From the NCBI RefSeq assembly GCF_035084215.1, contig NW_027138407.1:1612001-1676000 (forward strand): a stretch of 64,000 bases of DNA, written 5' to 3'. Below, in pieces: positions 2,163 to 64,000 of the stretch (positions are counted from its first letter, which is position 1; each line of letters begins with the position of its first letter). The position numbers and the translations under genes were made by a program. Origin of the DNA: Heptranchias perlo (Eukaryota). The notes beneath the pieces were generated by a model. The model searched no databases. It saw nothing but the letters and a program-made list of their open reading frames with translations, and had not been told where the DNA came from.

Positions 2163-3219
2163 CAAGGCTCGAGTGAACAGACGTGGTAAAAACTGGAAGA
2201 ACTGAAATGTAGGACTTCAAAGAACGTACAAGTGCCTCACGGCAGCAGTCCAACATTGTCGAGTTTGATGACTATATAATATGCCACTTGCTTCATTTCT
2301 GGCTTAGCCTTTACAAATTCAATGTTAATTCTGATGACCAAAACGACAATTAATGTAAAATCAAAAGAAATGGTGGAGGGTCAGAATAAATGTAACTTAC
2401 GATGATTGTAACATATCATATACAGGGTAAGGGACAACTGCGGTGTATTGTGAGATTGGGTGATGGGGAAACATTGAGATGAGGTCAAAAACCAGCTGAG
2501 TTTTTCAACCGGGACCACCCGGGTTTTCTACCTTGGAATGTACTCACAGTGCGTCGTCCGGTATAATACATGAAACAGAGCTTGTTGGGGCCACGTGGCT
2601 CTGTCGACATGAATAGACTACTAGTGGTCACTGGGATACATGTTACTGTTGGGTGTGTGGGCTATTATTGCTTTGATATATCACCAGCCAACTTATCCTG
2701 GTGTTGCACATAGGGAGCCAAGACCATGTGTGGTCTGCAGGTGGAGTGGGATTGGGGGGAATGGGATGGAGAGGGGTTGGAGAATTGGAACAGGGGCATG
2801 CAGAAATAATTGAGTGGCCATATTAACGACATTCAAACCTTTGGTTTCATATTATTATTTATTTCCAAATCGCAAATGTTGGACTATTTTGGGAAGCAGA
2901 GAGGTTGAGTTGTTTGGAACAGAGGAAATTCTCTGCAGTGCATGCGGAGTTGCCAAGAGATGCAAAATTGAGGCGCTGCAGCGCCACCACTGGTGAGAGG
3001 GTGTAATTACAGCGTGACACGTTTACATAGGCACTCACAATAATATATGTAGAGATAGGAATTTATAATGGGAGAAGTTGACACAAAGTGCGCAAGGATG
3101 TCAGATTTTTAAGATATTATAGATAGACATTTTGTGGATTTGCTGCTTTTTATTGGGGAAACCTCGCTGAGGGTCAAAGGGGAAACATGCAATACACCAC
3201 TGGAGTAATGTGACCACTT

Positions 3220-4925: not shown

Positions 4926-5248
4926 AGGCAAATCTAATGTTCAATCCCAAAAGGCAATAACAAGAAAGGAGACAGAAGGACAATGAGTGACTTTGGATAG
5001 AAACCTATCTCTGTTTGCAGTTCGTGCTGAGAATGTGGAAAAGGCTCAGTGTCACATTCAGGGTATGGAAATCTCAGTGTGTACTGACACCTGATCTACT
5101 GCAGGGTGGGACTGGGGACCAGGGTCTGTAATAGTATAATGGCGGTGGGGGGGGGGGGGGGACAGGGGATGGAAATCTCAGTGATTACTGATCGATGGAA
5201 AGTTGTCAGGCTGTGATGACGTAGTGGGACGCACTGCCCACCCAATCC

Positions 5249-6552
5249 CCCATCAGAGAGGGGAGAACTTAACCCCGCCTTCTGGGGCTGGATCTGACCC
5301 CAGGTCCCAGAACAGGAGAGGCCAGTGTCTGACCCGCATCCGCACCCAGACCCCCATCAGAGAGGGGAGACCTTCACCCCTCTGCCTGGAGCTGGATTTG
5401 ACCCCAGGTCCCAGAGGGTGAAAGGCCAGTGTCTGACCCACATCTCCACCCAGACCCCATCAGAGAGGGGAGACCTTCACCCCTCTGTCTGGGGCTGGAT
5501 TTGACCCCAGGTCCCAGAGGGTGAAAGGCCAGTGTCTGACCCACATCTCCACCCAGTCCTCCATCAGAGAGGGGAGACCTTCACCCCTCTGTCTGGGGCT
5601 GGATTTGACCCCAGGTCCCAGAGGGAGAAAGGCCAGTATCTGACCCACATCTCCACCCAGTCCTCCATCAGAGAGGGGAGACCTTCACCCCTCTGTCTGG
5701 GGCTGGATTTGACCCCAGGTCCCAGAGGGAGAAAGGCCAGTGTCTGACCCACATCTCCACCCAGTCCTCCATCAGAGAGGGGAGACCTTCACCCCTCTGT
5801 CTGGGGCTGGATTTGACCCCAGGTCCCAGAGGGTGAAAGGCCAGTGTCTGACCCACATCTCCACCCAGTCCTCCATCAGAGAGGGGAGACCTTCACCCCT
5901 CTGTCTGGGGCTGGATTTGACCCCAGGTCCCAGAGGGAGAAAGGCCAGTGTCTGACCCACATCTCCACCCAGTCCTCCATCAGAGAGGGGAGACCTTCAC
6001 CCCTCTGTCTGGGGCTGGATTTGACCCCAGGTCCCAGAGGGAGAAAGGCCAGTGTCTGACCCACATCTCCACCCAGTCCTCCATCAGAGAGGGGAGACCT
6101 TCACCCCTCTGTCTGGGGCTGGATTTGACCCCAGGTCCCAGAGGGAGAAAGGCCAGTGTCTGACCCACATCTCCACCCAGTCCTCCATCAGAGAGGGGAG
6201 ACCTTCACCCCTCTGTCTGGGGCTGGATTTGACCCCAGGTCCCAGAGGGAGAAAGGCCAGTGTCTGACCCACATCTCCACCCAGTCCTCCATCAGAGAGG
6301 GGAGACCTTCACCCCTCTGTCTGGGGCTGGATTTGACCCCAGGTCCCAGAGGGAGAAAGGCCAGTGTCTGACCCACATCTCCACCCAGTCCTCCATCAGA
6401 GAGGGGAGACCTTCACCCCTCTGTCTGGGGCTGGATTTGACCCCAGGTCCCAGAGGGAGAAAGGCCAGTGTCTGACCCACATCTCCACCCAGTCCTCCAT
6501 CAGAGAGGGGAGACCTTCACCCCTCTGTCTGGGGCTGGATTTGACCCCAGGT
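5249..6552 (-). repeat. 104-bp tandem repeat (~12.5 units), resembling a tRNA-derived SINE head on the minus strand
   Basis: 104-bp period seen in the ORF track (5564, 5668, 5772...); minus strand reads cactggcctttctccctctgggacctggggtcaaatccagcccc with a B-box-like GGGTCAAATCC. Confidence 0.9.
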
Positions 6553-6649
6553 CTCCAGAGGTGAATGGACAATATACCACCCATCCCAACAATGCTGGAA
6601 TTACATTGAGATTCCCATCAGGAGTCCCATCGAATCGGGGTGGAGGGAG

Positions 6650-6939: not shown

Positions 6940-7158
6940 GTGAGTGGATCTTTGAGAAGTTGAAGAGGCAGGGCCGGTTTGGATGGAGGTAATGTCACTG
7001 TTAGTGATAGAGAACGGGGATGGGTGAGTAGAGAGTGGGGAGAGAGGAATAGAGAGTGGGGAGAGGTGCGTAGAGAGTGGGGATGGGTGCAGAGAGTGGG
7101 GTTAGATGAGTAGAGATTGAGGATGGTGAGCTGCTTTGGAACTGAGGGCCGTTGAGGG

Positions 7159-8036
7159 GGGACTGAGAGACATCAGTCAGTGTCCAGATATCTTCCTGAG
7201 AGACAGGGACTGAGAGACAACAGTCAGTGTACAGGTATCTCCCTGAGGGAGAGGGACTGAGATGCACCAGTCAGTGTACAGATATCACCCTGAGAGAGAG
7301 GGACTGAGATACACCAGTCAGTGTACAGGTATCTCCCTGAGGGAGAGGGACTGAGAGACACCAGTCAGTGTACAGATATCTCCCTGAGAGAGAGGGACTG
7401 AGGGACACCAGTCATTGTACAGATATCTCACTGAGAGAGAGGGACTGAGAGACACCAGTCAGGGTACAGATATCACCCTGAGGGAGAGGGACTGAGAGAC
7501 ACCAGTCAGTGTACAGATATCTCCCTGAGGGAGAGGGACTGAGAGACACCAGTCAGTGTACAGATATCAACCTGAGAGAGAGGGACTGAGAGACACCAGT
7601 CAGTGTACAGATATCAACCTGAGAGAGAGGGACTGAGAGACACCAGTCAGTGTACAGATATCACCCTGAGAGAGAGGGACTGAGAGACACCAGTCAGTGT
7701 ACAGATATCTCCCTGAGAGAGAGAGACTGAGAGACACCAGTCAGTGTACAGATATCACCCTGAGGGAGAGGGAAATGAGAAACACCAGTCATTGTACAGA
7801 TATCACCCTGAGAGAGAGGGACTGAGAGTCACCAGTCAGTGTACAGATATCACCCTGAGGGAGAGGGACTGAGAGTCACCAGTCAGTGTACAGATATCAC
7901 CCTGAGAGAGAGGGACTGAGAGACACCAGTCAGTGTACAGATATCACCCTGAGAGAGAGGGACTGAGAGTCACCAGTCAGTGTACAGATATCACCCTGAG
8001 AGAGACGGACTGTGAGATACCAGTCATTGAACAGAT
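7159..8036 (+). repeat. 47-bp minisatellite (~18-19 units)
   Basis: Tandem gggactgagagacaccagtcagtgtacagatatcaccctgagagaga. Confidence 0.95.
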
Positions 8037-8041
8037 AGTTC

Positions 8042-11000
8042 TTTAGGGAAGGAAACCTGCCGTCCTTACCCGGTCTGGCCTTTTTGTGACTCCAGACCCA
8101 CAGCAATGTGGTTGATTCTTATTTGCCCTCTGAAATGGCCTAGCAAGCCAATCAGTTGTAAAATCTCGCTACGAAAAGTCATAATAAGAATAAAACCGGG
8201 CGGACCACCCGGCATCGGACCACTAGGCACAAGACATGACAACGGCAAACCACGCCCAGTCGACCCTGCAAGGTCCTCCTTACTAACATCTGGGGACTTG
8301 TGCCAAAATTGGGAGAGCTGTCCCACAGACTAGTCAAGCAACAGCCTGACATAGCCATACTCACAGAATCATATCTTTCAGCCAACATCCCAGACTCTTT
8401 CATTACCATCCCTGGGTATGTCCTGTCCCACTGGCAGGACAGACCCACCAGAGGTGGCGGTACAGTGATATACAGTCAGGAGGGAGTGGCCCTGGGAGTC
8501 CTCAACATTGGCTCTGGACCCCATGAAATCTCATGGCATCAGGTAAAACATGGGCAAGGAAACCTCCTGCTGATTACCACCGACCGTCCTCCCTCAGCTG
8601 ATGAATCAGTCCTCCTCCATGTTGAGCACCACTTGGAGGAAGAACTGAGGGTAGCAAGGGCACAAAATGTACTCTGGGTGGGGGACTTCAATGTCCATCA
8701 CCAAGAGTGGCTCGGTAGCACCACTACTGACCGAGCTGGCCGAGTCCTGAAGGACATAGCTGCTAGACTGGGCCTGCGGCAGGTGGTGAGCGAACCAACA
8801 CGAGGGAAAAACTTACTTGATCTCGTCCTCACCAATCTACCTGTCGCAAATGCATCTGTCCATGACAGTATTGGTAGGAGTGACCACCACACAGTCCTCA
8901 TGGAGATGAAGTCCGTCTTCGCACTGAGGACACCATCCAACGTGTTGTGTGGCACTACCACCATGCTAAATGGGATAGATTCAGAACAGATCTAGCAGCT
9001 CAAAATTGGGCATCCATGAGGCGCTGTGTGCCATCAGCAGCAGCAGAATTGTATTCCACCACAATCTGTAACCTCATGGCCCGGCATATTCCTCACTCTA
9101 CCATGACCAACAAGCCAGGAGATCAACCCTGGTTCAATGAGGAGTGTAGAAGAGCATGCCAGGAGCAGCACCAGGTGTACTTAAAAATGAGGTACCAACC
9201 TGGTGAAGCTACAACTCAGGACTACATGCATGCTAAACAGCAGAAGCAACATGCTATAGACAGAGCTAAGCGATTCCACAACCAACGGATCAGATCAAAG
9301 CTCTGCAGCCATGCCACATCCAGTCGTGAATGGTGGTGGACAATTAAACAACTAACAGGAGGAGGAGGCTCTGCAAACATCCCCATCCTCAATGATGGTG
9401 GAGTCCAGCACGTGAGTGCAAAAGACAAGGCTGAAGCGTTTGCAACGATCTTCAGCCAGAAATGCCGAGTGGATGATCCATCTCGGCCTCCTCCCGATAT
9501 CCCCACCGTCACGGAAGCCAGTCTTCGGCCAATTCGATTCCCTCTACGTGATATCAACAAACGGCTGAGTGCACTGGATACTGCAAAGGCGATGGGCCCC
9601 GACAACATCCCAGCTGTAGTGCTGAAGACTTGTGCTCCAGAACTAGCTGCGCCTCTAGCCAAGCTGTTCCAGTACAGCTACAACACTGGCATCTACCCGA
9701 CAATGTGGAAAATTGCCCAGGTATGTCCTGTCCACAAAAAGCAGGACAAATCCAATCCGGCCAATTACCGCCCCATCAGTCTACTCTCAATCATGAGCAA
9801 AGTGATGGAAGGTGTCATCAACAGTGCTATCAAGCGGCACTTACTCACCAATAACCTGCTCACCGATGCTCAGTTTGGGTTCCGCCAGGACCACTCGGCT
9901 CCAGATCTCATTACAGCCTTGGTCCAAACATGGACAAAAGAGCTGAATTCCAGAGGTGAGGTGAGAGTGACTGCCCTTGACATCAAGGCAGCATTTGACC
10001 GAGTGTGGCACCAAGGAGCCCTTGTAAAATTGAAGTCAACGGGAATCAGGGGGAAAACTCTCCAGTGGCTGGAGTCATACCTAGCACAAAGGAAGATGGT
10101 AGTGGTTGTTGGAGGCCAATCATCTCAGCCCCAGGACATTGCTGCAGGAGTTCCTCAAGGCAGTGTCCTAGGCCCAACCATCTTCAGCTGCTTCATCAAT
10201 GACCTTCCCTCCAACATCAGGTCAGAAATGGCGATGTTCGCTGATGATTGCACAGTGTTCAGTTCCATTCGCAACCCCTCAAATAATGAAGCAGTCCGAG
10301 CCCACATGCAGCAAGACCTGGACAACATCCAGGCTTGGGCTCATAAGTGGCAATTAACATTCGCGCCAGATAAGTGCCAGGCAATGACCATCTCCAACAA
10401 GAGAGAGTCTAACCACCTCCCCTTGACATTCAACGGCATTACCATCGCCGAATCCCTCAGCATCAACATCCTGGGGGTTACCATTGACCAGAAACTTAAC
10501 TGGACCAGCCATATAAATACTGTGGCGACAAGGGCAGGTCGGAGGCTGGGTATTCTGTGGCGAGTGACTCACCTCCTGACTCCCCAAAGCCTTTCCACCA
10601 TCTACAAGGCACAAGTCAGGAGTGTGATGGAATACTCTCCACTTGCTTGGATGAGTGCAGCTCCAACAACACTCAAGAAGCTCGATACCATCCAAGATAA
10701 AGCAGCCCGCTTGATTGGCACCCAATCCACCACCCTAAACATTCACTCCCTTCACCACCGGCGCACTGTGACTGCAGTGTGTACCATCCACAGGATGCAC
10801 TGCAGCAACTCGCCAAGGCTTCTTCAACAGCACCTCCCAAACCCGCGACCTCTACCACCTAGAAGGACAAGAGCATCAGGCACATGGGAACAACACCACC
10901 TGCACGTTCCCCTCCAAGTCACAAACCATCCCGACTTGGAAATATATCGGCCGTTCCTTCATTGTCGCTGGGTCAAAATCCTGGAACTCCCTTCCTAACA

Positions 11001-11141
11001 GCACTGTGGGAAAACCTTCACCACACGGACTGCAGCGGCTCAAGAAGGCGGCTCACCACCACCTTCTCAAGGGGCGACTAGGGATGGGCAATAAATGCTG
11101 GCCTCGCCAGCGACGCCCACATCCCGTGAACGAATAAAGAA
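8042..11141 (+). mobile_element. Near full-length LINE family A (APE endonuclease + RT), frameshifted, lacking the tRNA-like head
   Basis: EN motifs NIWGL, LTES, GDFN, SDH (ORF 8300-8995); RT motifs ALDIKAAFDRVWH, GVPQGSVLGP, FADD (ORF 8947-10998); 1-nt deletion near 8912; possible 5-bp TSD agttc at 8037/11142. Confidence 0.95.
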
Positions 11142-11475
11142 AGTTCACTTTCTAATATTTTGGATCACATTGTTTTGAATATTTAATAACTGTATTGATA
11201 TCTGTCCATTTACAGGCTTCAGAGTCCTACGTGATCTCTGCAATTCTGCATCCTGGCACCGCAGCAATCTCTTGGGCCCATTGGTTTCCACAGGTTTCAG
11301 AGAAGAAGCTCACCCTGTCTGAACCCATGAGATAGGATTAACGTGTTGGAGAGCCAACTGAGACCTTCAAAAACCAATAATCTGACAGGGCGGTCTCAAC
11401 TGTTGTTGAACAATATCGGATCTCATTCCCCGACATTGTTCATCCGTTGCTCTGTATTGTTTGGCATAACACCAA

Positions 11476-36110: not shown

Positions 36111-36115
36111 AGTTC

Positions 36116-39100
36116 TTTAGGGAAGGAAACCTGCCGTCCTTACCCGGTCTGGCCTTTTTGTGACTCCAGACCCACAGCAATGTGGTTGATTCTTATTTGC
36201 CCTCTGAAATGGCCTAGCAAGCCAATCAGTTGTAAAATCTCGCTACGAAAAGTCATAATAAGAATAAAACCGGGCGGACCACCCGGCATCGGACCACTAG
36301 GCACAAGACATGACAACGGCAAACCACGCCCAGTCGACCCTGCAAGGTCCTCCTTACTAACATCTGGGGACTTGTGCCAAAATTGGGAGAGCTGTCCCAC
36401 AGACTAGTCAAGCAACAGCCTGACATAGCCATACTCACAGAATCATATCTTTCAGCCAACATCCCAGACTCTTTCATCACCATCCCTGGGTATGTCCTGT
36501 CCCACTGGCAGGACAGACCCACCAGAGGTGGCGGTACAGTGATATACAGTCAGGAGGGAGTAGTCCTGGGAGTCCTCAACATTGACGCTGGACCCCATGA
36601 AATCTCATGGCATCAGGTAAAACATGGGCAAGGAAACCTCCTGCTGATTACCACCTACCGTCCTCCCTCAGCTGATGAATCAGTCCTCCTCAATGTTGAG
36701 CACCACTTGGAGGAAGAACTGAGGGTAGCAAGGGCACAAAATGTACTCTGGGTGGGGGACTTCAATGTCCATCACCAAGAGTGGCTCAGTAGCACCACTA
36801 CTGACCGAGCTGGCCGAGTCCTGAAGGACATAGCTGCTAGACTGGGCCTGCGGCAGGTGGTGAGCGAACCAACACGAGGGAAAAACCTACTTGACCTCGT
36901 CATCACCAATCTACCTGTCGCAAATGCATCTGTCCATGACAGTATTGGTAGGAGTGACCACCACACAGTCCTCATGGAGATGAAGTCCGTCTTCGCACTG
37001 AGGACACCATCCAACGTGTTGTGTGGCACTACCACCATGCTAAATGGGATAGATTCAGAACAGATCTAGCAGCTCAAAATTGGGCATCCATGAGGCGCTG
37101 TGTGCCATCAGCAGCAGCAGAATTGTATTCCACCACAATCTGTAACCTCATGGCCCGGCATATTCCTCACTCTACCATGACCAACAAGCTAGGAGATCAA
37201 CCCTGGTTCAATGAGGAGTGTAGAAGAGCATGCCAGGAGCAGCACCAGGTGTACCTAAAAATGAGGTACCAACCTGGTGAAGCTACAACTCAGGACTACA
37301 TGCATGCTAAACAGCAGAAGCAACATGCTATAGACAGAGCTAAGCGATTCCACAACCAACGGATCAGATCAAAGCTCTGCAGCCATGCCACATCCAGTCG
37401 TGAATGGTGGTGGACAATTAAACAACTAACAGGAGGAGGAGGCTCTGCAAACATCCCCATCCTCAATGATGGTGGAGTCCAGCACGTGAGTGCAAAAGAC
37501 AAGGCTGAAGCGTTTGCAACGATCTTCAGCCAGAAATGCCGAGTGGATGATCCATCTCGGCCTCCTCCCGATATCCCCACCGTCACGGAAGCCAGTCTTC
37601 GGCCAATTCGATTCCCTCTACGTGATATCAACAAACGGCTGAGTGCACTGGATACTGCAAAGGCTATGGGCCCCGACAACATCCCAGCTGTAGTGCTGAA
37701 GACTTGTGCTCCAGAACTAGCTGCGCCTCTAGCCAAGCTGTTCCAGTACAGCTACAACACTGGCATCTACCCGACAATGTGGAAAATTGCCCAGGTATGT
37801 CCTGTCCACAAAAAGCAGGACAAATCCAATCCGGCCAATTACCGCCCCATCAGTCTACTCTCAATCATGAGCAAAGTGATGGAAGGTGTCATCAACAGTG
37901 CTATCAAGCGGCACTTACTCACCAATAACCTGCTCACCGATGCTCAGTTTGGGTTCCGCGAGGACCACTCGGCTCCAGATCTCATTACAGCCTTGGTCCA
38001 AACATGGACAAAAGAGCTGAATTCCAGAGGTGAGGTGAGAGTGACTGCCCTTGACATCAAGGCAGCATTTGACCGAGTGTGGCACCAAGGAGCCCTTGTA
38101 AAATTGAAGTCAACGGGAATCAGGGGGAAAACTCTCCAGTGGCTGGAGTCATACCTAGCACAAAGGAAGATGGTAGTGGTTGTTGGAGGCCAATCATCTC
38201 AGCCCCAGGACATTGCTGCAGGAGTTCCTCAAGGCAGTGTCCTAGGCCCAACCATCTTCAGCTGCTTCATCAATGACCTTCCCTCCAACATCAGGTCAGA
38301 AATGGCGATGTTCGCTGATGATTGCACAGTGTTCAGTTCCATTCGCAACCCCTCAAATAATGAAGCAGTCCGAGCCCACATGCAGCAAGACCTGGACAAC
38401 ATCCAGGCTTGGGCTCATAAGTGGCAATTAACATTCGCGCCAGATAAGTGCCAGGCAATGACCATCTCCAACAAGAGAGAGTCTAACCACCTCCCCTTGA
38501 CATTCAACGGCATTACCATCGCCGAATCCCTCAGCATCAACATCCTGGGGGTTACCATTGACCAGAAACTTAACTGGACCAGCCATATAAATACTGTGGC
38601 GACAAGGGCAGGTCGGAGGCTGGGTATTCTGTGGCGAGTGACTCACCTCCTGACTCCCCAAAGCCTTTCCACCATCTACAAGGCACAAGTCAGGAGTGTG
38701 ATGGAATACTCTCCACTTGCTTGGATGAGTGCAGCTCCAACAACACTCAAGAAGCTCGATACCATCCAAGATAAAGCAGCCCGCTTGATTGGCACCCAAT
38801 CCACCACCCTAAACATTCACTCCCTTCACCACCGGCGCACTGTGACTGCAGTGTGTACCATCCACAGGATGCACTGCAGCAACTCGCCAAGGCTTCTTCG
38901 ACAGCACCTCCCAAACCCGCGACCTCTACCACCTAGAAGGACAAGAGCAGCAGGCACATGGGAACAACACCACCTGCACGTTCCCCTCCAAGTCACAAAC
39001 CATCCCGACTTGGAAATATATCGGCCGTTCCTTCATTGTCGCTGGGTCAAAATCCTGGAACTCCCTTCCTAACAGCACTGTGGGAAAACCTTCACCACAC

Positions 39101-39215
39101 GGACTGCAGCGGCTCAAGAAGGCGGCTCACCACCACCTTCTCAAGGGGCGACTAGGGATGGGCAATAAATGCTGGCCTCGCCAGCGACGCCCACATCCCG
39201 TGAACGAATAAAGAA
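36116..39215 (+). mobile_element. LINE family A, copy 3 (EN + RT, frameshifted)
   Basis: ORFs 36374-37069 (EN) and 37021-39072 (RT). Confidence 0.95.
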
Positions 39216-39549
39216 AGTTCACTTTCTAATATTTTGGATCACATTGTTTTGAATATTTAATAACTGTATTGATATCTGTCCATTTACAGGCTTCAGAGTC
39301 CTACGTGATCTCTGCAATTCTGCATCCTGGCACCGCAGCAATCTCTTGGGCCCATTGGTTTCCACAGGTTTCAGAGAAGAAGCTCACCCTGTCTGAACCC
39401 ATGAGATAGGATTAACGTGTTGGAGAGCCAACTGAGACCTTCAAAAACCAATAATCTGACAGGGCGGTCTCAACTGTTGTTGAACAATATCGGATCTCAT
39501 TCCCCGACATTGTTCATCCGTTGCTCTGTATTGTTTGGCATAACACCAA

Positions 39550-51808: not shown

Positions 51809-52477
51809 CCGGGTTAAATTTCTTGCACTAGGGCCCCCAGGAATCAGTACTGGGGCCTTAGCTTTTCATTAGATTTACAGTGGACTAAATTTGCTGACGA
51901 CACTAAGTTAGGAGGCACAGTAAATAGTGCAGATGGGAGCAGAAAGTTACAAAGGGACATTGAGAGATTAAGTGGGGCAGATGGAGTTCAGTGTGGGAAA
52001 GTGTGAGGTCGTCCACTTTGGACCTAAGAAAGATCGATCAGGGTATATCCTAAATGGCGAGAAGCTCAGAACTGTGGAGGAGCAGAGAGATTCAGGGGTC
52101 CAAGTACAGAAATCAGTAAAAGCCAGTGGACAGAGACAAAAAATAATTCAAAAAGCGAATGGAATGTTGGCCTTTATCTCAGAGGGCTGGAATACAAAGG
52201 GTGGAAATTATGGACAGAGCTCTGGTTAGACCCCATCTGGAGCACGGTGTTCAGTTCTGGGCACCGCACCTCAGGAAGGAGATATTGGCCTTGGAGGGGG
52301 TGCAGGACAGATTCACCAGAATAACACCAGGGCTAAAAGGGTTAAATTATGAGGACAGGTTGCACAGACTCGGCTTGTAATCCCTTGACTATAGAAGATT
52401 AATGAATGATCCAATTGAGATGTTTAAGATGATTAAAGGAGCTGATTGGGTAGATGGAGAGAAACTATTTCCCCTGT

Positions 52478-55400
52478 TTTTTTTTATTCGTTCATGGGAT
52501 GTGGGCGTCGCTGGCGAGGCCGGCATTTATTGCCCATCCCTAATTGCCCCTTGAGAAGGTGGTGGTGAGCCGCCTTCTTGAACCGCTGCAGTCCGTGTGG
52601 TGAAGGTTCTCCCACAGTGCTGTTAGGAAGGGAGTTCCAGGATTTTGACCCAGTGACGATGAAGGAATGGCTGATATATTTCCAAGTCGGGATGGTGTGT
52701 GACTTGGAGGGTAACGTGCAGGTGGTGTTGTTCCCATGTGCCTGCTGCCCTCGTCCTTCTAGGTGGTAGAGGTCGTGGGTTTGGGAGGTGCCGTCAAAGA
52801 AGCCTTGACGAGTTGCTGCAGTGCATCCTGTGGATGGTACACACTGCAGCCACAGTGCGCCAGTGGTGAAGGGAGTGAATGTTTAGGGTGGTGGATGGGG
52901 TGCCAATCAAGCGGGCTGCTTTGTCCTGGATGGTGTCGAGCTTCTTGAGTGTTGTTGGAGCTGCACTCATCCTGGCAAGTGGAGTGTATTCCATTACATT
53001 CCTGACTTGTGCCTTGTAGATGGTGGAAAGGCTTTGGGGAGTCAGGAGGTGAGTCACTCGCTGCAGAATACCCAGCCTCTGACCTGCTCTTGTAGCCACA
53101 GTATTTATATGGCTGGTCCAGTTAAGGTTCTGGTCAATGGTAACCCCCAGGATATTGATGGTGGGGGATTCGACGATGGTAATGCCGTTGAATGTCAAGG
53201 GGAGGTGGTTAGACTCTCTCCTGTTCGAGATGGTCATTGCCTGGCACTTGTCTGGCGCGAATGTTACTTGCCACTTATCAGTCCAAGCCTGGATGTTGTC
53301 CAGGTCTTGCTGCATGCGGGCTCGGACTGCTTCATTACCTGAGGGGTTGTGAATGGAACTGAACACTGTGCAATCGTCAGTGAACGTCCTCATTTCTGAC
53401 CTTATGATAGAGGGAAGGTCATTGATGAAGCAGCTGAAAATGTTTGGGCCTAGGACACTGCCCTGAGGAACTCCTGCAGCAATGTCCTGGGGCTGAGATG
53501 ATTGGCCTCCAACAACCACTACCATCTTCCTTTGTGCTAGGTATGACTCCAGCCACTGGAGAGTTTTCCCCCTGATTCCCATTGACTTCAATTTTACTCG
53601 GGCTCCTTGGTGCCACACTCGGTCAAATGCTGCCTTGATGTCAAGGGCAGTCACTCTCACCTCACCTCTGGAATTCAGCTCTTTTGTCCATGTTTGGACC
53701 AGGGCTGTAATGAGGTCTGGGGCCGAGTGGTCCTGGCGGAACCCAAACTGAACACCGGTGAGCAGGTTATTGGTGAGTAAGTGCTGCTTGATAGCACTGT
53801 CGACGACACCTTCCATCACTTTGCTGATGATTGAGAGTAGACTGATGGGGCGGTAATTGGCCGGATTGGATTTGTCCTGCTTTTTGTGGACAGGATATAC
53901 CTGGGCAATTTTCCACATTGTCGGGTAGATGCCAGTGTTGTAGCTGTACTGGAACAGTTTGGCGAGAGGCACAGCTAGTTCTGGAGCACAAGTCTTCAGC
54001 ACTACAGCTGGGATGTTGTTAGGGCCCATAGCCTTTGCTGTATCCAGTGCACTCAGCCGTTTCTTGATATCACGTGGAGTGAATCGAATTGGCTGAAGAC
54101 TGGCTTCTGTGATGGTGGGGATATCGGGAGGAGGCCGAGATGGATCATCCACTCGGCATTTCTGGCTGAAGATGGTTGCAAACACTTCAGCCTTGTCTTT
54201 TGCACTCACGTGCTGGACTCCGCCATCATTGAGGATGGGGATGTTTACAGAGCCTCCTCCTCCCATTAGTTGTTTAACTGTCCACCACCATTCACGACTG
54301 GATGTGGCAGAAGTGCAGAGCTTTGTTTGTGGAATCGCTTAGCTCTGTCTATAGCATGTTGCTTCCGCTGTTTAGCATGCATGTAGTCCTGAGTTGTAGC
54401 TTCACCAGGTTGGCACCTCATTTTTAGGTACGCCTGGTGCTGCTCCTGGCATGCTCTTCTACATTCCTTATTGAACCAGGGTTGATCCCCCTGGCTTGTT
54501 GGTAATGGTTGAGTGAGGAATATGCCGGGCCATGAGGTTACAGATTGTGCTGGAATACAATTCTGCTGCTGCTGATGGCCCACAGCACCTCCTGATGGCC
54601 CACAGCACCTCCTGGAGGCCCAGTTTTGAGCTGCTAGATCTGTTCTGAATCTATCCCATTTAGCACGGTGGTAGTGCCACACAACACGTTGGATGGTGTC
54701 CTCAGTGTCGAAGACAGGATTTCATCTCCATGAGGACTGTGCGGTGGTCACTCCTACCAATACTGTCATGGACAGATGCATTTGCGACAGGTAGATTGGT
54801 GAGGACGAGGTCAAGTCAGTTTTTCCCTCACCACCTGCCGCAGGCCCAGTCTGGCAGCTATGTCCTTCAGGACTCGGCCAGTAGTGGTGCTACTGAGCCA
54901 CTCTTGGTGATGGACATTGAAGTCCCCCACCCAGAGTACATTTTGTGCCCTTGCTACCCTCAGTGCTTCCTCCAAGTGGTGCTCAACATGGAGGAGGACT
55001 GATTCATCAGCTGAGGGAGGGCGGTAGGTGGGAATCAGCAGGAGGTTTCCTTGCCCATGTTTGAGCTGATGCCTTGAGATCTGGAGTCAATGTGTCGGAC
55101 TCCCAGGGCCACTCCCTCCTGACTGTATATCACTGTACCGCCACCTCTGGTGGGTCTGTCCCGCCAGTGGGACAGGACGGTAATGGAAGAGTCTGGGACG
55201 TTGGCTGAAAGGTACGATTCTGTGAGTGTGGCTGTGTCAGGCTGTTGCTTGACTAGTCTGTGGGACAGCTCTCCCAATTTTGGCACAGGTCCCCAGATGT
55301 TCGCGAGGAGGACTTTGCAGGGTCGACTGGGCTTGGCTTGCCTTTGTTGTGTCCGGTGCCTAGTGGTCTGTCTGGTTTTATTCTTATCATGACTTTTTTT

Positions 55401-55706
55401 AAGTGAGATTTTACAACTGGAGTGGCTTGCTGGACCATTTCAGAATCAACCACATTGCTGTGGGTCTGGAGTCACATCTCGGACTCCTTCCACGAAAGGG
55501 ACATTAATGAACCAGATGGGTTTTTACGACAATCCGGTCGTTTCATGGCTACCATTACTGATACTCGTATTTTAATTCCAGATTTTATTTAATTAATTAA
55601 ATTTAAATTCCCTAGCTGCCATGGTGGAATTAGAACTCATAATTCTGGATTATTGGTTCAGGCCTCTGGATTACTAGTTCAGTAACATAACCACTATGCT
55701 ACCGTA
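52478..55706 (-). mobile_element. Full-length LINE family A with tRNA-like Pol III head and one degraded EN-RT ORF
   Basis: Poly(A) at 52478; RT ORF 52794-54266; EN remnants 54730-55300; A-box 55691-55701 and B-box 55626-55638; TSD ccctgt at 52472-52477 and 55707-55712. Confidence 0.92.
55626..55701 (-). promoter_or_regulatory. Internal Pol III type-2 promoter (A box TAGCATAGTGG, B-box-like GAGTTCTAATTCC)
   Basis: A box fits TRGCNNAGYGG a few nt from the element's 5' end; B box resembles GGTTCRANNCC, 52 nt downstream. Confidence 0.7.
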
Positions 55707-56074
55707 CCCTGTGGGGGGAATCCAGAACAAGGGGGCAGAACCTTAAACTTAGAGCCAGGCCGTTCAGGGGTGAAGTCAGGAATCACTTCTTCACACAAAG
55801 GGGAGTGGAAATCTGGAACTCTCTCCCCACAAAAAGCTGTTGAGGCTGGGGGTCAATTGAAAATTTCAGTACTGAGATTGATCGATATTTGTCAGGCGAG
55901 GGTATTGAGGGTTACGGAACCGAGGCGGGTAGATGGAGTTAAGATACAGATCAGCCATGATCTAATTGAATGACGGAACAGACTCGAGGGGCTGAATGGC
56001 CTACTCTTGTTCCTATGTTTTTCTGTTTCTATCTATCTATCGATCTGTCTAATTATCTATTTATACCTGCATTT

Positions 56075-59118: not shown

Positions 59119-62050
59119 CCACACCTGTCAATCACTCTCCCACACCTGTCAATCACTCTCCCACACCTGTCAATCACTCTCCCACACCTGTCAATCACTC
59201 CCCCACACCTGTCAATCCCTCCCACACCTGTCAATCACACACCCCCACATCTGTCAATCACTCCCCCACACCTGTCAATCACTCTCCCACACCTGTCAAT
59301 CCCTCCCCCCCACCTGTCAATCACTCCCCCACACCTGTCAATCACTCCCCACACCTGTCAATCACTCCCCCACACCTGTCAATCCCTCCCACACCTGTCA
59401 ATCCCTCCCCCACACCTGTCAATCACTCCCCCACACCTGTCAATCACTCCCCACACCTGTCAATCACTTCCCACACCTGTCAATCCCTCCCCCACACCTG
59501 TCAATCACGACCCCACACCTGTCAATCCCTCCCACACCTGTCAATCACTCGCCACACCTGTCAATCACTCCCCCACACCTGTCAATCACGCCCCCACGCC
59601 TGTCAATCACTCCCCACACCTGTCAATCACTCCCCACACCTGTCAATCACTCCCCACACCTGTCAATCACTACCCCACACCTGTCAATCACTCTCCCACA
59701 CCTGTCAATCACTTCCCACACCTGTCAATCACTCCCCCACAACTGTCAATCACTCCTCCACACCTGTCAATCACTCTCCCACACCTGTCAATCACTTCCC
59801 ACAACTGTCAATCACTCCCCCACACCTGTCAATCACTCCCCCACCTGCCAATCACTCCCCCACACCTGTCAATCACTCCCTCACCTGTCTATCACTCCCT
59901 CACCTGTCAATCACTTCCCACACCTGTCAATCACTTCCCACACCTGTCAATCACTCCCACACACCTGTCAATCACTCCGCCACACATGTCAATCACTCCC
60001 TCACCTGTCAATCACTCCCTCACCTGTCAATCACTCCCCCACCTGTCAATCACTTCCCACACCTGTCAATCACTCCCTCACCTGTCAATCACTCCCTCAC
60101 CTGTCAATCACTCCCCCACACCTGTCAATCACTCCCCCACCTGTCAATCACTCCCTCACCTGTCAATCACTTCCCACACCTGTCAATCACTCCCTCACCT
60201 GTTAATCACTCCCACACACCTGTCAATCACTCCCCCACACCTGTCAATCACTCCCACACACCTGTCAATCACTCCCTCACCTGTCAATCACTCCCCCACC
60301 TGTCAATCACTCCCCCACCTGTCAATCACTCCCTCACCTGTCAATCACTCCCACACCTGTCAATCACTCCCCCACACCTGTCAATCATTCCCCACCTGTC
60401 AATCACTCCCACACCTGTCAATCACTCCCTCACCTGTCAATCACTCCCACACACCTGTCAATCACTTCCCACACCTGTCAATCACTCCCCCACCTGTCAA
60501 TCACTTCCCACACCTGGCAATCACTCCCTCACCTGTCAATCAATCCCCCACACCTGTCAATCACTTCCCACACCTGTCAATCACTTCCCACACATGTCAA
60601 TCACTTCCCACACCTGGCAATCATTCCCTCACCTGTCAATCACTTCCCACACCTGTCAATCACTCCCCCACACCTGTCAATCACTCCCTCACCTGTCAAT
60701 CACTCCCCCACACCTGTCAATCACTTCCCACACCTGTCAATCACTTCCCACACCTGTCAATCACTCCCTCACCTGTCAATCACTCCCTCAACTGTCAATC
60801 ACTTCCCACACCTGTCAATCACTCCCCCACCTGTCAATCACTCCCTCACCTGTCAATCACTTCCCACACCTGTCAATCACTCCCACACCTGTCAATCACT
60901 CCCCCACCTGTCAATCACTCCCACACCTGTCAATCACTTCCCACACCTGTCAATCACTCCCTCACCTGTCAATCACTTCCCACACCTGTCAATCACTGCC
61001 CCACACCTGTCAATCACTCCCCCACCTGTCAATCACTCCCTCACCTGTCAATCACTTCCCACACCTGTCAATCACTTCCCACACCTGTCAATCACTCCCT
61101 CACCTGTCAATCACTCCATCACCTGTCAATCACTCCCACACCTGTCAATCACTCCCACACACCTGTCAATCACTTCCCACACCTGTCAATCACTCCCCCA
61201 CCTGTCAATCACTTCCCACACCTGGCAATCACTCCCTCACCTGTCAATCACTCCCCCACACCTGTCAATCACTTCCCACACCTGTCAATCACTTCCCACA
61301 CCTGTCAAATCACTTCCCACACCTGGCAATCACTCCCTCACCTGTCAATCACTTCCCACACCTGTCAATCACTCCCCCACACCTGTCAATCACTCCCTCA
61401 CCTGTCTATCACTCCCTCACCTGTCAATCACTCCCCACACCTGTCAATCACTTCCCACACCTGTCAATCACTTCCCACACCTGTCAATCACTCCCTCACC
61501 TGTCAATCCCTCCCTCAACTGTCAATCACTTCCACACCTGTCAATCACTCCCCCACCTGTCAATCACTCCCTCACCTGTCAATCACTTCCACACCTGTCA
61601 ATCACTCCCACACCTGTCAATCACTCCCCCACCTGTCAATCACTCCCACACCTGTCAATCACTTCCCACACCTGTCAATCACTCCCTCACCTGTCAATCA
61701 CTTCCCACACCTGTCAATCACTTCCCACACCTGTCAATCACTGCCCCACACCTGTCAATCACTCCCCCACCTGTCAATCACTCCCCCACCTGTCAATCAC
61801 TTCCCACACCTGTCAATCACTCCCTCACCTGTCAATCACTCCCCCACCTGTCAATCACTCCCTCACCTGTCAATCACTTCCCACACCTGTCAATCACTCC
61901 CTCACCTGTCAATCACTCCCACACCTGTCAATCACTTCCCTCACCTGTCAATCACTCCCTCACCTGTCAATCACTTCCCACACCTGTCAATCACTCCCCC
62001 ACCTGTCAATCACTCCCTCACCTGTCAATCACTCCCTCACCTGTCAATCA
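59119..62050. repeat. ~20-22 bp minisatellite (cacacctgtcaatcactccc), roughly 140 units
   Basis: Near-invariant core cacctgtcaatcac with a variable C-rich spacer. Confidence 0.97.
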
Positions 62051-62227
62051 CAGCTGGTTGCCATGACTTGCAATTCTCGCTCAATCCCCGCCCCCTCCAG
62101 CGGTCACCACGCCCCCAGGAGCACGTGCTCCTAGTCCCCGTTTCCCATTGGCCCGGGCCCGGCCTATCAGTGGGCGCGCTCGTTCGGGCCGCGTCATCAA
62201 GGCGGAAGCGGCAGGTGAGAAAAGGGG
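62051..62227 (+). promoter_or_regulatory. CpG-rich promoter and probable non-coding first exon ending in a splice donor
   Basis: RFX-like GTTGCCATGAC 62057, GC box CCCCGCCCCC 62086, CCACGCCCC 62107, palindromic E-box aggagCACGTGctcct 62117-62132, ATTGG 62147, ETS CGGAAG 62203, donor CAG|GTGAGA 62214/62215. Confidence 0.7.
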
Positions 62228-62357: not shown

Positions 62358-64000
62358 GAGATAGGGGGATAGAGAGAGAGAGAGAGAGATAGGGGGATAG
62401 AGAGAGAGAGAGAGAGAGATAGGGGGATAGAGAGNNNNNNNNNNNNNNNNNNNNNNNNNNNNNNNNNNNNNNNNNNNNNNNNNNNNNNNNNNNNNNNNNN
62501 NNNNNNNNNNNNNNNNNNNNNNNNNNNNNNNNNNNNNNNNNNNNNNNNNNNNNNNNNNNNNNNNNNNNNNNNNNNNNNNNNNNNNNNNNNNNNNNNNNNN
62601 NNNNNNNNNNNNNNNNNNNNNNNNNNNNNNNNNNNNNNNNNNNNNNNNNNNNNNNNNNNNNNNNNNNNNNNGAGAGATAGGGGGATAGAGAGAGAGAGAG
62701 AGATAGGGGGATAGAGAGAGAGAGAGAGATAGGGGGATAGAGAGAGAGAGAGAGATAGGGGGATAGAGAGAGAGAGAGAGATAGGGGGATAGAGAGAGAG
62801 AGAGAGATAGGGGGATAGAGAGAGAGAGAGAGATAGGGGGATAGAGAGAGAGAGAGAGATAGGGGGATAGAGAGAGAGAGAGAGATAGGGGGATAGAGAG
62901 AGAGAGAGAGATAGGGGGATAGAGAGAGAGAGAGATAGGGGGATAGAGAGAGAGAGAGAGATAGGGGGATAGAGAGAGAGAGAGAGATAGGGGGATAGAG
63001 AGAGAGAGAGAGAGATAGGGGGATAGAGAGAGAGAGAGAGAGATAGGGGGATAGAGAGAGAGGAGAGAGATAGGGGGATAGAGAGAGAGAGAGAGATAGG
63101 GGGATAGAGAGAGAGAGAGAGATAGGGGGGATAGAGAGAGAGAGAGAGATAGGGGGATAGAGAGAGAGAGAGAGATAGGGGGATAGAGAGAGAGAGAGAG
63201 ATAGGGGGATAGAGAGAGAGAGAGAGATAGGGGGATAGAGAGAGAGAGAGAGATAGGGGGATAGAGAGAGAGAGAGAGATAGGGGGATAGAGAGAGAGAG
63301 AGAGATAGGGGGATAGAGAGAGAGAGAGAGATAGGGGGATAGAGAGAGAGAGAGAGATAGGGGGATAGAGAGAGAGAGAGAGATAGGGGGAATAGAGAGA
63401 GAGAGAGAGATAGGGGGATAGAGAGAGAGAGAGAGATAGGGGGATAGAGAGAGAGAGAGAGATAGGGGGATAGAGAGAGAGAGAGAGATAGGGGGATAGA
63501 GAGAGAGAGAGAGATAGGGGGATAGAGAGAGAGAGAGAGATAGGGGGATAGAGAGAGAGAGAGAGATAGGGGGATAGAGAGAGAGAGAGAGATAGGGGGA
63601 TAGAGAGAGAGAGAGAGATAGGGGGATAGAGAGAGAGAGAGAGATAGGGGGATAGAGAGAGAGAGAGAGATAGGGGGATAGAGAGAGAGAGAGAGATAGG
63701 GGGATAGAGAGAGAGAGAGAGATAGGGGGATAGAGAGAGAGAGAGAGATAGGGGGATAGAGAGAGAGAGAGAGATAGGGGGATAGAGAGAGAGAGAGAGA
63801 TAGGGGGATAGAGAGAGAGAGAGAGATAGGGGGATAGAGAGAGAGAGAGAGATAGGGGGATAGAGAGAGAGAGAGAGATAGGGGGATAGAGAGAGAGAGA
63901 GAGATAGGGGGGATAGAGAGAGAGAGAGAGATAGGGGGATAGAGAGAGAGAGAGAGATAGGGGGATAGAGAGAGAGAGAGAGATAGGGGGATAGAGAGAG
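62358..64000 (+). repeat. Purine-rich 22-26 bp repeat (GA)n-TAGGGGGATA with N gaps
   Basis: gagagagagagatagggggata in tandem to the end of the window. Confidence 0.95.

Follow-up and report, generated by a model that had tools for sequence, protein, structure and literature searches.

A tRNA-like head with A and B boxes opens the elasmobranch Zenon LINE, a candidate protein-coding retrotransposon for Pol III

In textbook and specialist statements, retrotransposon classes are divided by the polymerase that transcribes them, LINEs being assigned to Pol II and SINEs to Pol III. Passages of one specialist paper likewise have LINEs use Pol II, and element length limited by the processivity of Pol III (PMC10886601). 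Pol III promoters derived from small RNAs are nevertheless a trait shared by several retroelements that are not SINEs, such as Cassandra, Helenus and Ajax (TRIMp3), which are short, non-coding and non-autonomous LTR elements, unlike a coding Zenon LINE (PMC10886601). A LINE, RTE-1_DAn, and elements related to it are said to contain a tRNA-like sequence (PMC5786205), although they belong to the RTE clade, unlike Zenon, and sections of that paper state neither where this sequence lies nor what it does and hold no claim about Pol III. Zenon elements themselves are described, in passages of PMC13343379, as generally lacking ORF1 and ending in poly(A), and the elasmobranch members listed there (SquAca_Zenon-1, -2 and -3, CarCar_Zenon-1, RhiTyp_Zenon-1, ScyCan_Zenon-1 and HypSab_Zenon-1) are, like our element, 2.9-3.3 kb long, without ORF1 and poly(A)-tailed. 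In parts of a whale-shark preprint, CR1-Zenon-like LINEs are merely mentioned (10.1101/443036).

The element at 52478-55709 of the window, that is, of the whole 64-kb stretch of shark DNA that was analysed, is a decayed full-length copy of such an elasmobranch Zenon LINE on the minus strand, with a single APE and RT frame, poly(A) and no ORF1. An earlier note on this DNA had allowed that the family might already be known under another name, and this proved correct: it equals the elasmobranch Zenon of PMC13343379, a 19-nt body motif being located in seven rows of the supplement. What is new is therefore not the family, which is already described, but its apparently unremarked head and the consequences of that head. 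In the first 400 nt of the published elasmobranch consensuses, compared by eye, head, body and linker match our element (the spiny dogfish consensuses are closest, their arm being doubled), the same A/B-box head opens all seven shark and ray sequences (7/7), and the stretch from the arm to the B box varies between species. Over the same 400 nt, and again by eye, two hagfish and one coelacanth Zenon consensuses have no head and do contain T-runs. The words tRNA, promoter and polymerase III occur nowhere in the main text of PMC13343379, and main-text passages make no mention of the head, of oligo-T avoidance or of short derivatives; nor was a published description of a tRNA-like head in Zenon found in the literature covered (largely open-access papers, with the Repbase and Dfam collections and Repbase Reports outside it). 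A rapid tree of RT sequences, built on 73 of the 125 rows and holding no named Zenon reference, places the family outside the clade of other shark LINEs (support 100) and within a 59-row clade (support 99) that also includes proteins of lancelet, crab, beetle and moth. The nearest named proteins to the element come from a shark, and three shark gene models (P0044, P0055 and P0072, one of which is named aldo-keto reductase-like) include LINE-protein pieces of 69-85% identity, which are either annotation artefacts or exonised fragments.

On the minus strand, between 55709 and 52478, the element runs from an A box and a B box through about 200 nt of body into a broken APE-RT frame (about 55400 to 52540), and ends in a 3' hairpin and eight A (Table 1). 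This is the layout that the earlier note had described, and the sequence bears it out, together with the remark that there is no space for an ORF1, since the body runs directly into the APE-RT frame. Pfam PF03372 and PF14529 score above cut-off in the endonuclease region of two sibling copies (L035 and L242), a single-unit version of the anticodon-arm-like region is found in three others (L191, L203 and L206) and a 20-nt tandem duplication lies within the frame of the present copy, at 54574-54613. The tail contains AATAAA, which fits Pol II-type processing.

Table 1. Features of the Zenon element and of a sibling copy, in window coordinates.
Feature	Position	Strand	Remark
Sibling copy, truncated within body	8041..11142	+	segmental duplication gives two more, near 22100-25203 and 36115-39216
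3' TSD copy	52472..52477	-	part of host CR1-type repeat
Poly(A) tail, 8 nt	52478..52485	-	from sequence
3' hairpin tail	52496..52540	-	z -2.55; 3/200 shuffles equally good
C-terminal coding region	52540..52793	-	stop codon 52542-52540
Longest open stretch, 514 codons, reverse transcriptase domain	52794..54338	-	RVT_1 E 3.2e-36
Basic N-terminal stretch and APE endonuclease region	54744..55400	-	broken in this copy; NIWG motif at 55301
Non-coding body	55413..55614	-	common to short SINE-like derivatives; includes upstream AUG at 55455-55453
tRNA-derived head	55615..55709	-	family 5' end = 55709
B box	55626..55638	-	decayed in this copy; consensus-like across family
Anticodon-arm-like unit, two copies	55645..55682	-	units 55682-55666 and 55661-55645
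A box	55691..55701	-	motif common to 7/7 published elasmobranch Zenon consensuses, by eye
5' TSD copy	55707..55712	-	ACA + GGG; GGG doubles as element's first three bases

Elsewhere in the window, positions 1-41177 are made of a ~14-kb unit in three tandem copies with 97-98% identity, each unit holding a body-truncated copy, a 670-nt 3' fragment of the LINE and minisatellites. The three plus-strand copies previously placed at 8042, 22101 and 36116 are indeed siblings truncated within the body, and represent one insertion present three times, with identical 5' junctions, in this segmental repeat. A further 5'-truncated family copy of 1.2 kb lies on the plus strand at 45381-46580, and self-BLAST reveals long tandem arrays at 5238-6561, 7153-8037, 42527-43969, 59119-62051 and 62358-64000, with periods near 100, 47, 50, 20 and 26 nt.

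The family 5' end, GGGTACGG, places the start of the element at 55709. Because the family begins with GGGTACGG, the GGG of the single 6-bp target-site duplication claimed earlier is at the same time the element's own start, so that 3 bp of this duplication are certain while the full 6 bp is only an upper limit. The host repeat, on the other hand, was rightly taken to be uninterrupted across the insert (18 distinct alignments span the joined flanks). The duplication by itself would not demonstrate that head and ORF moved together, since a match scoring at least 6 is also present in 20 of 150 mismatched flank pairs; the family data do demonstrate it. Target-site duplications were discarded as a line of evidence on the family, since 13 of 32 loci lack one, the short ones are at control level and the sole clear long one measures 14 bp (L036). 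As for the proposed check that head and ORF be joined within such duplications, the joining is consistent family-wide but the duplications are weak.

Head, body, frame and tail are mobile as a single unit, in two lineages in this genome and in the published consensuses from five further shark and ray species, and the same junction recurs at dozens of independent loci, as expected from the earlier note's claim that head and ORF form one mobile unit. Copies with an ordinary 5' UTR or an ORF1, which would make the head a peculiarity of one copy, were looked for and did not turn up in the family searches. When head plus ORF start was the query, every further match (39/39) joined head to ORF, and 31 of the 38 examined extended to poly(A) (L046, a twin inverted locus, was left out of this set). 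Since such a query selects for the junction, two independent queries, the head alone and the endonuclease alone, were also run. From the head, 25 of 29 matches run on into the ORF, the others being three short head-plus-tail elements and one rearranged copy. From the endonuclease, 24 of 29 extend to the head (20 of these at base 1-3), five are 5'-truncated with mutually unrelated flanks, and an alternative 5' end was seen in none of the 29. The exact body-end motif has 10,626 occurrences, with the LINE type accounting for 93 of the first 100 matches listed, and the family makes up 3.6% of a 370-kb random sample (37 arbitrarily placed stretches). Its majority sequence, from which 28 aligned full-length copies diverge by a median of 3.6% (a figure biased toward young copies since these were the best-scoring matches), holds one 967-codon frame with APE and RT domains. 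At three single loci (L046, L081 and L084), the LINE occurs in a head-to-head or inverted twin arrangement.

A second, older lineage, which has its own linker, also bears a tRNA-like head. Among its 39 fetched loci, 20 continue into the ORF, 16 jump to the tail and three do neither; in an unselected set of 30, six run on into the frame and a further 20 skip to the tail, at junctions scattered between consensus positions 3129 and 3216 (the old-copy query brought back mostly young copies). The Zenon frame evolves under purifying selection, with a pN/pS of 0.21-0.24 between old and young frames, the old sequence being reference-guided. In the younger lineage there is a ~400-nt form, found at 28 loci, whose junction, mostly fixed in position, fuses bases 1-320 with the final ~105 nt. 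These final ~105 nt are a structured 3' tail common to the LINE and the short elements, as in a stringent-type LINE/SINE pair. In both lineages, the ~400-nt SINE-like elements have the appearance of headed LINEs that lost their interior, a loss that would have happened repeatedly, because junctions are scattered, pieces of linker and coding end are retained, and heads and tails are lineage-matched. The description of the element as a SINE/LINE hybrid, in the sense of a captured SINE, is consequently not established, since in this genome the SINE-like elements look like deletion products rather than the donor. In the tails of this family, T creeps into the start of the poly(A) after insertion, as a mutational pattern of T/A boundaries (TTTT or longer in 13 of 41 old and 4 of 61 young tails, e.g. 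L033, L197 and L341).

The Rfam tRNA score of the head of the 52478-55709 copy being weak (18.6 bits, E 0.35), its tRNA origin is argued from the family and from alignment to genomic tRNAs. With one arm unit taken out, the head agrees with a genomic tRNA-Gln(CTG) gene in 50 of 75 positions, with a score of 68 against a shuffle maximum of 35; the alignment covered Gln, Cys and Thr genes, Gln being best and a Thr gene a close second. Family heads score 18.6-24.7 bits in Rfam, under the 29-bit cut-off, and ARAGORN detects the family head solely at relaxed threshold, as Thr(AGT), while it calls no tRNA gene over the 64-kb window. The A and B boxes are retained in the head whereas the cloverleaf is not: no acceptor-stem or T-stem pairing was found in the family head, and that of the present copy shows no special fold relative to shuffles (z -0.24). 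A pair of A and B boxes is what a DNA-level type 2 promoter requires. The 5' ends of copies fall sharply at the tRNA +1 position. Against Rfam, with hits accepted up to E 10, the interval 55300-55800 matches only tRNA and SNORD66, both weakly, and no ribozyme of that database. Among invertebrate relatives, sampled as metagenome loci of which most lack their own 5' end, so that the negative is a weak one, A-box plus B-box motifs within 700 nt before the matched frame were seen in 0 of 80, and an Rfam tRNA in none of the 17 of these that were scanned. Two large arrays concern tRNA sequences elsewhere in the genome: a tRNA-Gln(TTG)-type motif recurs in tandem with a period of about 3.1 kb (G000:C38, about 2.5-8.9 Mb), and tRNA genes, with Cys and Thr among those checked, recur with a period of about 2.36 kb (G000:C23, about 1.8-18.4 Mb).

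Sense-strand T-runs must be absent from a Pol III template. The family majority sequence has, on its sense strand, 0 TTTT versus 18 AAAA in 3288 nt. This zero is weak taken alone, since 2.0 are expected and none is seen in 404 of 4000 and 497 of 5000 composition-aware simulations (about 10-12%, P about 0.10). Within the frame, runs of TTT or longer number 5 against 15.8 expected (ratio 0.31), a value as low being reached in 1 of 4000 simulations, and the same ratio is 0.68-1.40 (median 1.05) in 44 relatives, namely those among the 80 from metagenomes with a long intact frame. The A-run ratio in the family is 0.82, so that the TTT depletion is not mirrored on A. In this genome, family stretches contain 2 TTTT versus 35 expected by composition (a count including non-independent tandem copies from the window), and other shark LINE stretches 124 versus 88. 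Because relatives, A-runs and other LINEs of the same genome do not match it, oligo-T avoidance is specific to the family and to the strand. The older lineage has TTTT or longer ~113 nt from the start, after the B box, in 17 of 50 motif matches (spurious ones included), and its reference-guided consensus has one TTTT near base 113, which could be drift of a T/A boundary after insertion, of the kind seen in the poly(A) tails, or may be a real terminator. Transcript contigs from seven runs cover head and ORF in pieces, with no listed piece spanning the two, and contigs carry no information on start, strand or polymerase.

The first in-frame Met of the family frame is codon 281, and several upstream AUGs precede the frame. 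The AUG in the body was tried as a family-wide in-frame start and rejected, being in frame in merely 15 of 49 copies. Between this AUG and the endonuclease, deletions of 12 nt recur at many loci and a length variant of 15 nt occurs, each a multiple of three, and there are three frame classes determined by one A-run. A -1 frameshift could be concealed by an upstream frame that overlaps. No explanation is at hand for the translation of an uncapped RNA that lacks an in-frame AUG, which counts against transcription by Pol III.

Our preferred reading, to which we assign a probability of roughly 0.55, is that Zenon may be a protein-coding retrotransposon transcribed by Pol III, translation in cis included. 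As far as sequence can tell, Pol III drive gains indirect support from the A and B boxes kept across sharks and rays, combined with the strand-specific avoidance of oligo-T. In such a cycle, (i) TFIIIC would bind the A and B boxes in the head, (ii) Pol III would initiate at GGG and read 3.3 kb owing to a sense strand without T-run terminators, (iii) the uncapped RNA would be translated via a non-AUG start or a frameshift from an upstream AUG, and (iv) the encoded protein would bind the 3' hairpin, insertion proceeding by target-primed reverse transcription, which is established for APE-type LINEs. Internal deletions retaining the first ~320 and last ~105 nt would then provide ready-made SINE-like passengers. 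More tentatively, at a little under even odds, elasmobranch Zenon would be autonomous, transcribed by Pol III end to end, translated without cap or in-frame AUG, kept since the shark-ray ancestor and a one-step source of tRNA-headed SINEs by internal deletion.

Pol II might instead do all the work, the head being a tRNA relic within a Pol II promoter, or the RNA coming from host-gene read-through, with boxes that might bring in TFIIIC to activate or insulate, and a scarcity of oligo-T that stems from C-rich composition or selection on RNA stability. Pol II is given as the polymerase of every characterised LINE (in sections of PMC10886601 and PMC5786205), part of the translation problem would disappear, and the P of about 0.10 for absent TTTT alone, the T-run near base 113 in old copies and the plentiful passive transcription to be expected of a family at 3.6% of the random sample all suit this explanation. 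We nevertheless find it rather unlikely, since TTT depletion goes far beyond that in the 44 relatives and in other shark LINEs, with A-runs at 0.82, since capped scanning would still find no in-frame AUG and would encounter several upstream ones, and since the 5' ends are sharp at tRNA +1. Labour might also be split, Pol III making the template RNA from the head and Pol II transcripts of copies within genes supplying the protein, which accounts for box conservation and oligo-T avoidance without cap-independent translation. This is improbable, because a protein supplied in trans ought to benefit deletion derivatives, but the LINE type prevails among the first 100 body-end matches listed (93), and because purifying selection on the frame suggests that one RNA is both translated and copied.

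Copies that start sharply at the +1 position of a mature tRNA would also be seen if the head were an RNA-level tRNA mimic, cleaved by RNase P to trim longer Pol II co-transcripts to a precise 5' end, and 5' processing has a precedent in other LINE clades, in the ribozymes of R2, RTE and Ingi (parts of PMC5786205). There is very little to be expected from this idea, however, as acceptor and T stems are unpaired in the family head, the head at 52478-55709 folds no better than shuffles, no Rfam ribozyme matches at 55300-55800, and oligo-T avoidance is not predicted by it. As for a chance event, be it a one-off template switch or a SINE landing before a LINE, the weak target-site duplications of the family would be in keeping with it, but it is refuted because an identical junction recurs in dozens of independent loci and some ten thousand motif matches, across two lineages and in five further species.

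A 3.3-kb LINE that codes for protein, keeps its A and B boxes and has been cleared of T-runs on the coding strand offers a direct test of the rule that LINEs belong to Pol II, and the same element tests both the processivity of Pol III and the translation of Pol III RNA in an animal. Deletion of a headed LINE would be a one-step route to a SINE, opposite to the usual model of head capture, and shark SINE annotations may be mixing in LINE 5' ends. Among known systems, the ribozyme-headed LINEs (R2, RTE and Ingi) have, at the 5' end, a ribozyme that cleaves itself, none being matched by Rfam at 55300-55800 in this element, and the body is, by eye, unlike the Deu, Meta and UCON3 central domains in alignments from the supplement of PMC7245038. 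Persaeus, from lepidopteran Zenon, is likewise a bipartite (5' plus 3') non-autonomous derivative produced by internal deletion, but it has, according to passages of PMC6740152, neither tRNA homology nor a Pol III promoter, whereas the shark deletion product starts with the tRNA head. With SINE2 elements, our element shares a tRNA-like A/B-box head, a body and a LINE-type hairpin tail. SINE2 elements are short and non-coding, however, whereas the shark element is 3.3 kb long and codes for APE and RT under the constraint given above (pN/pS 0.21-0.24), so that it is only the ~400-nt derivatives that fit, and these have exactly the SINE2 anatomy.
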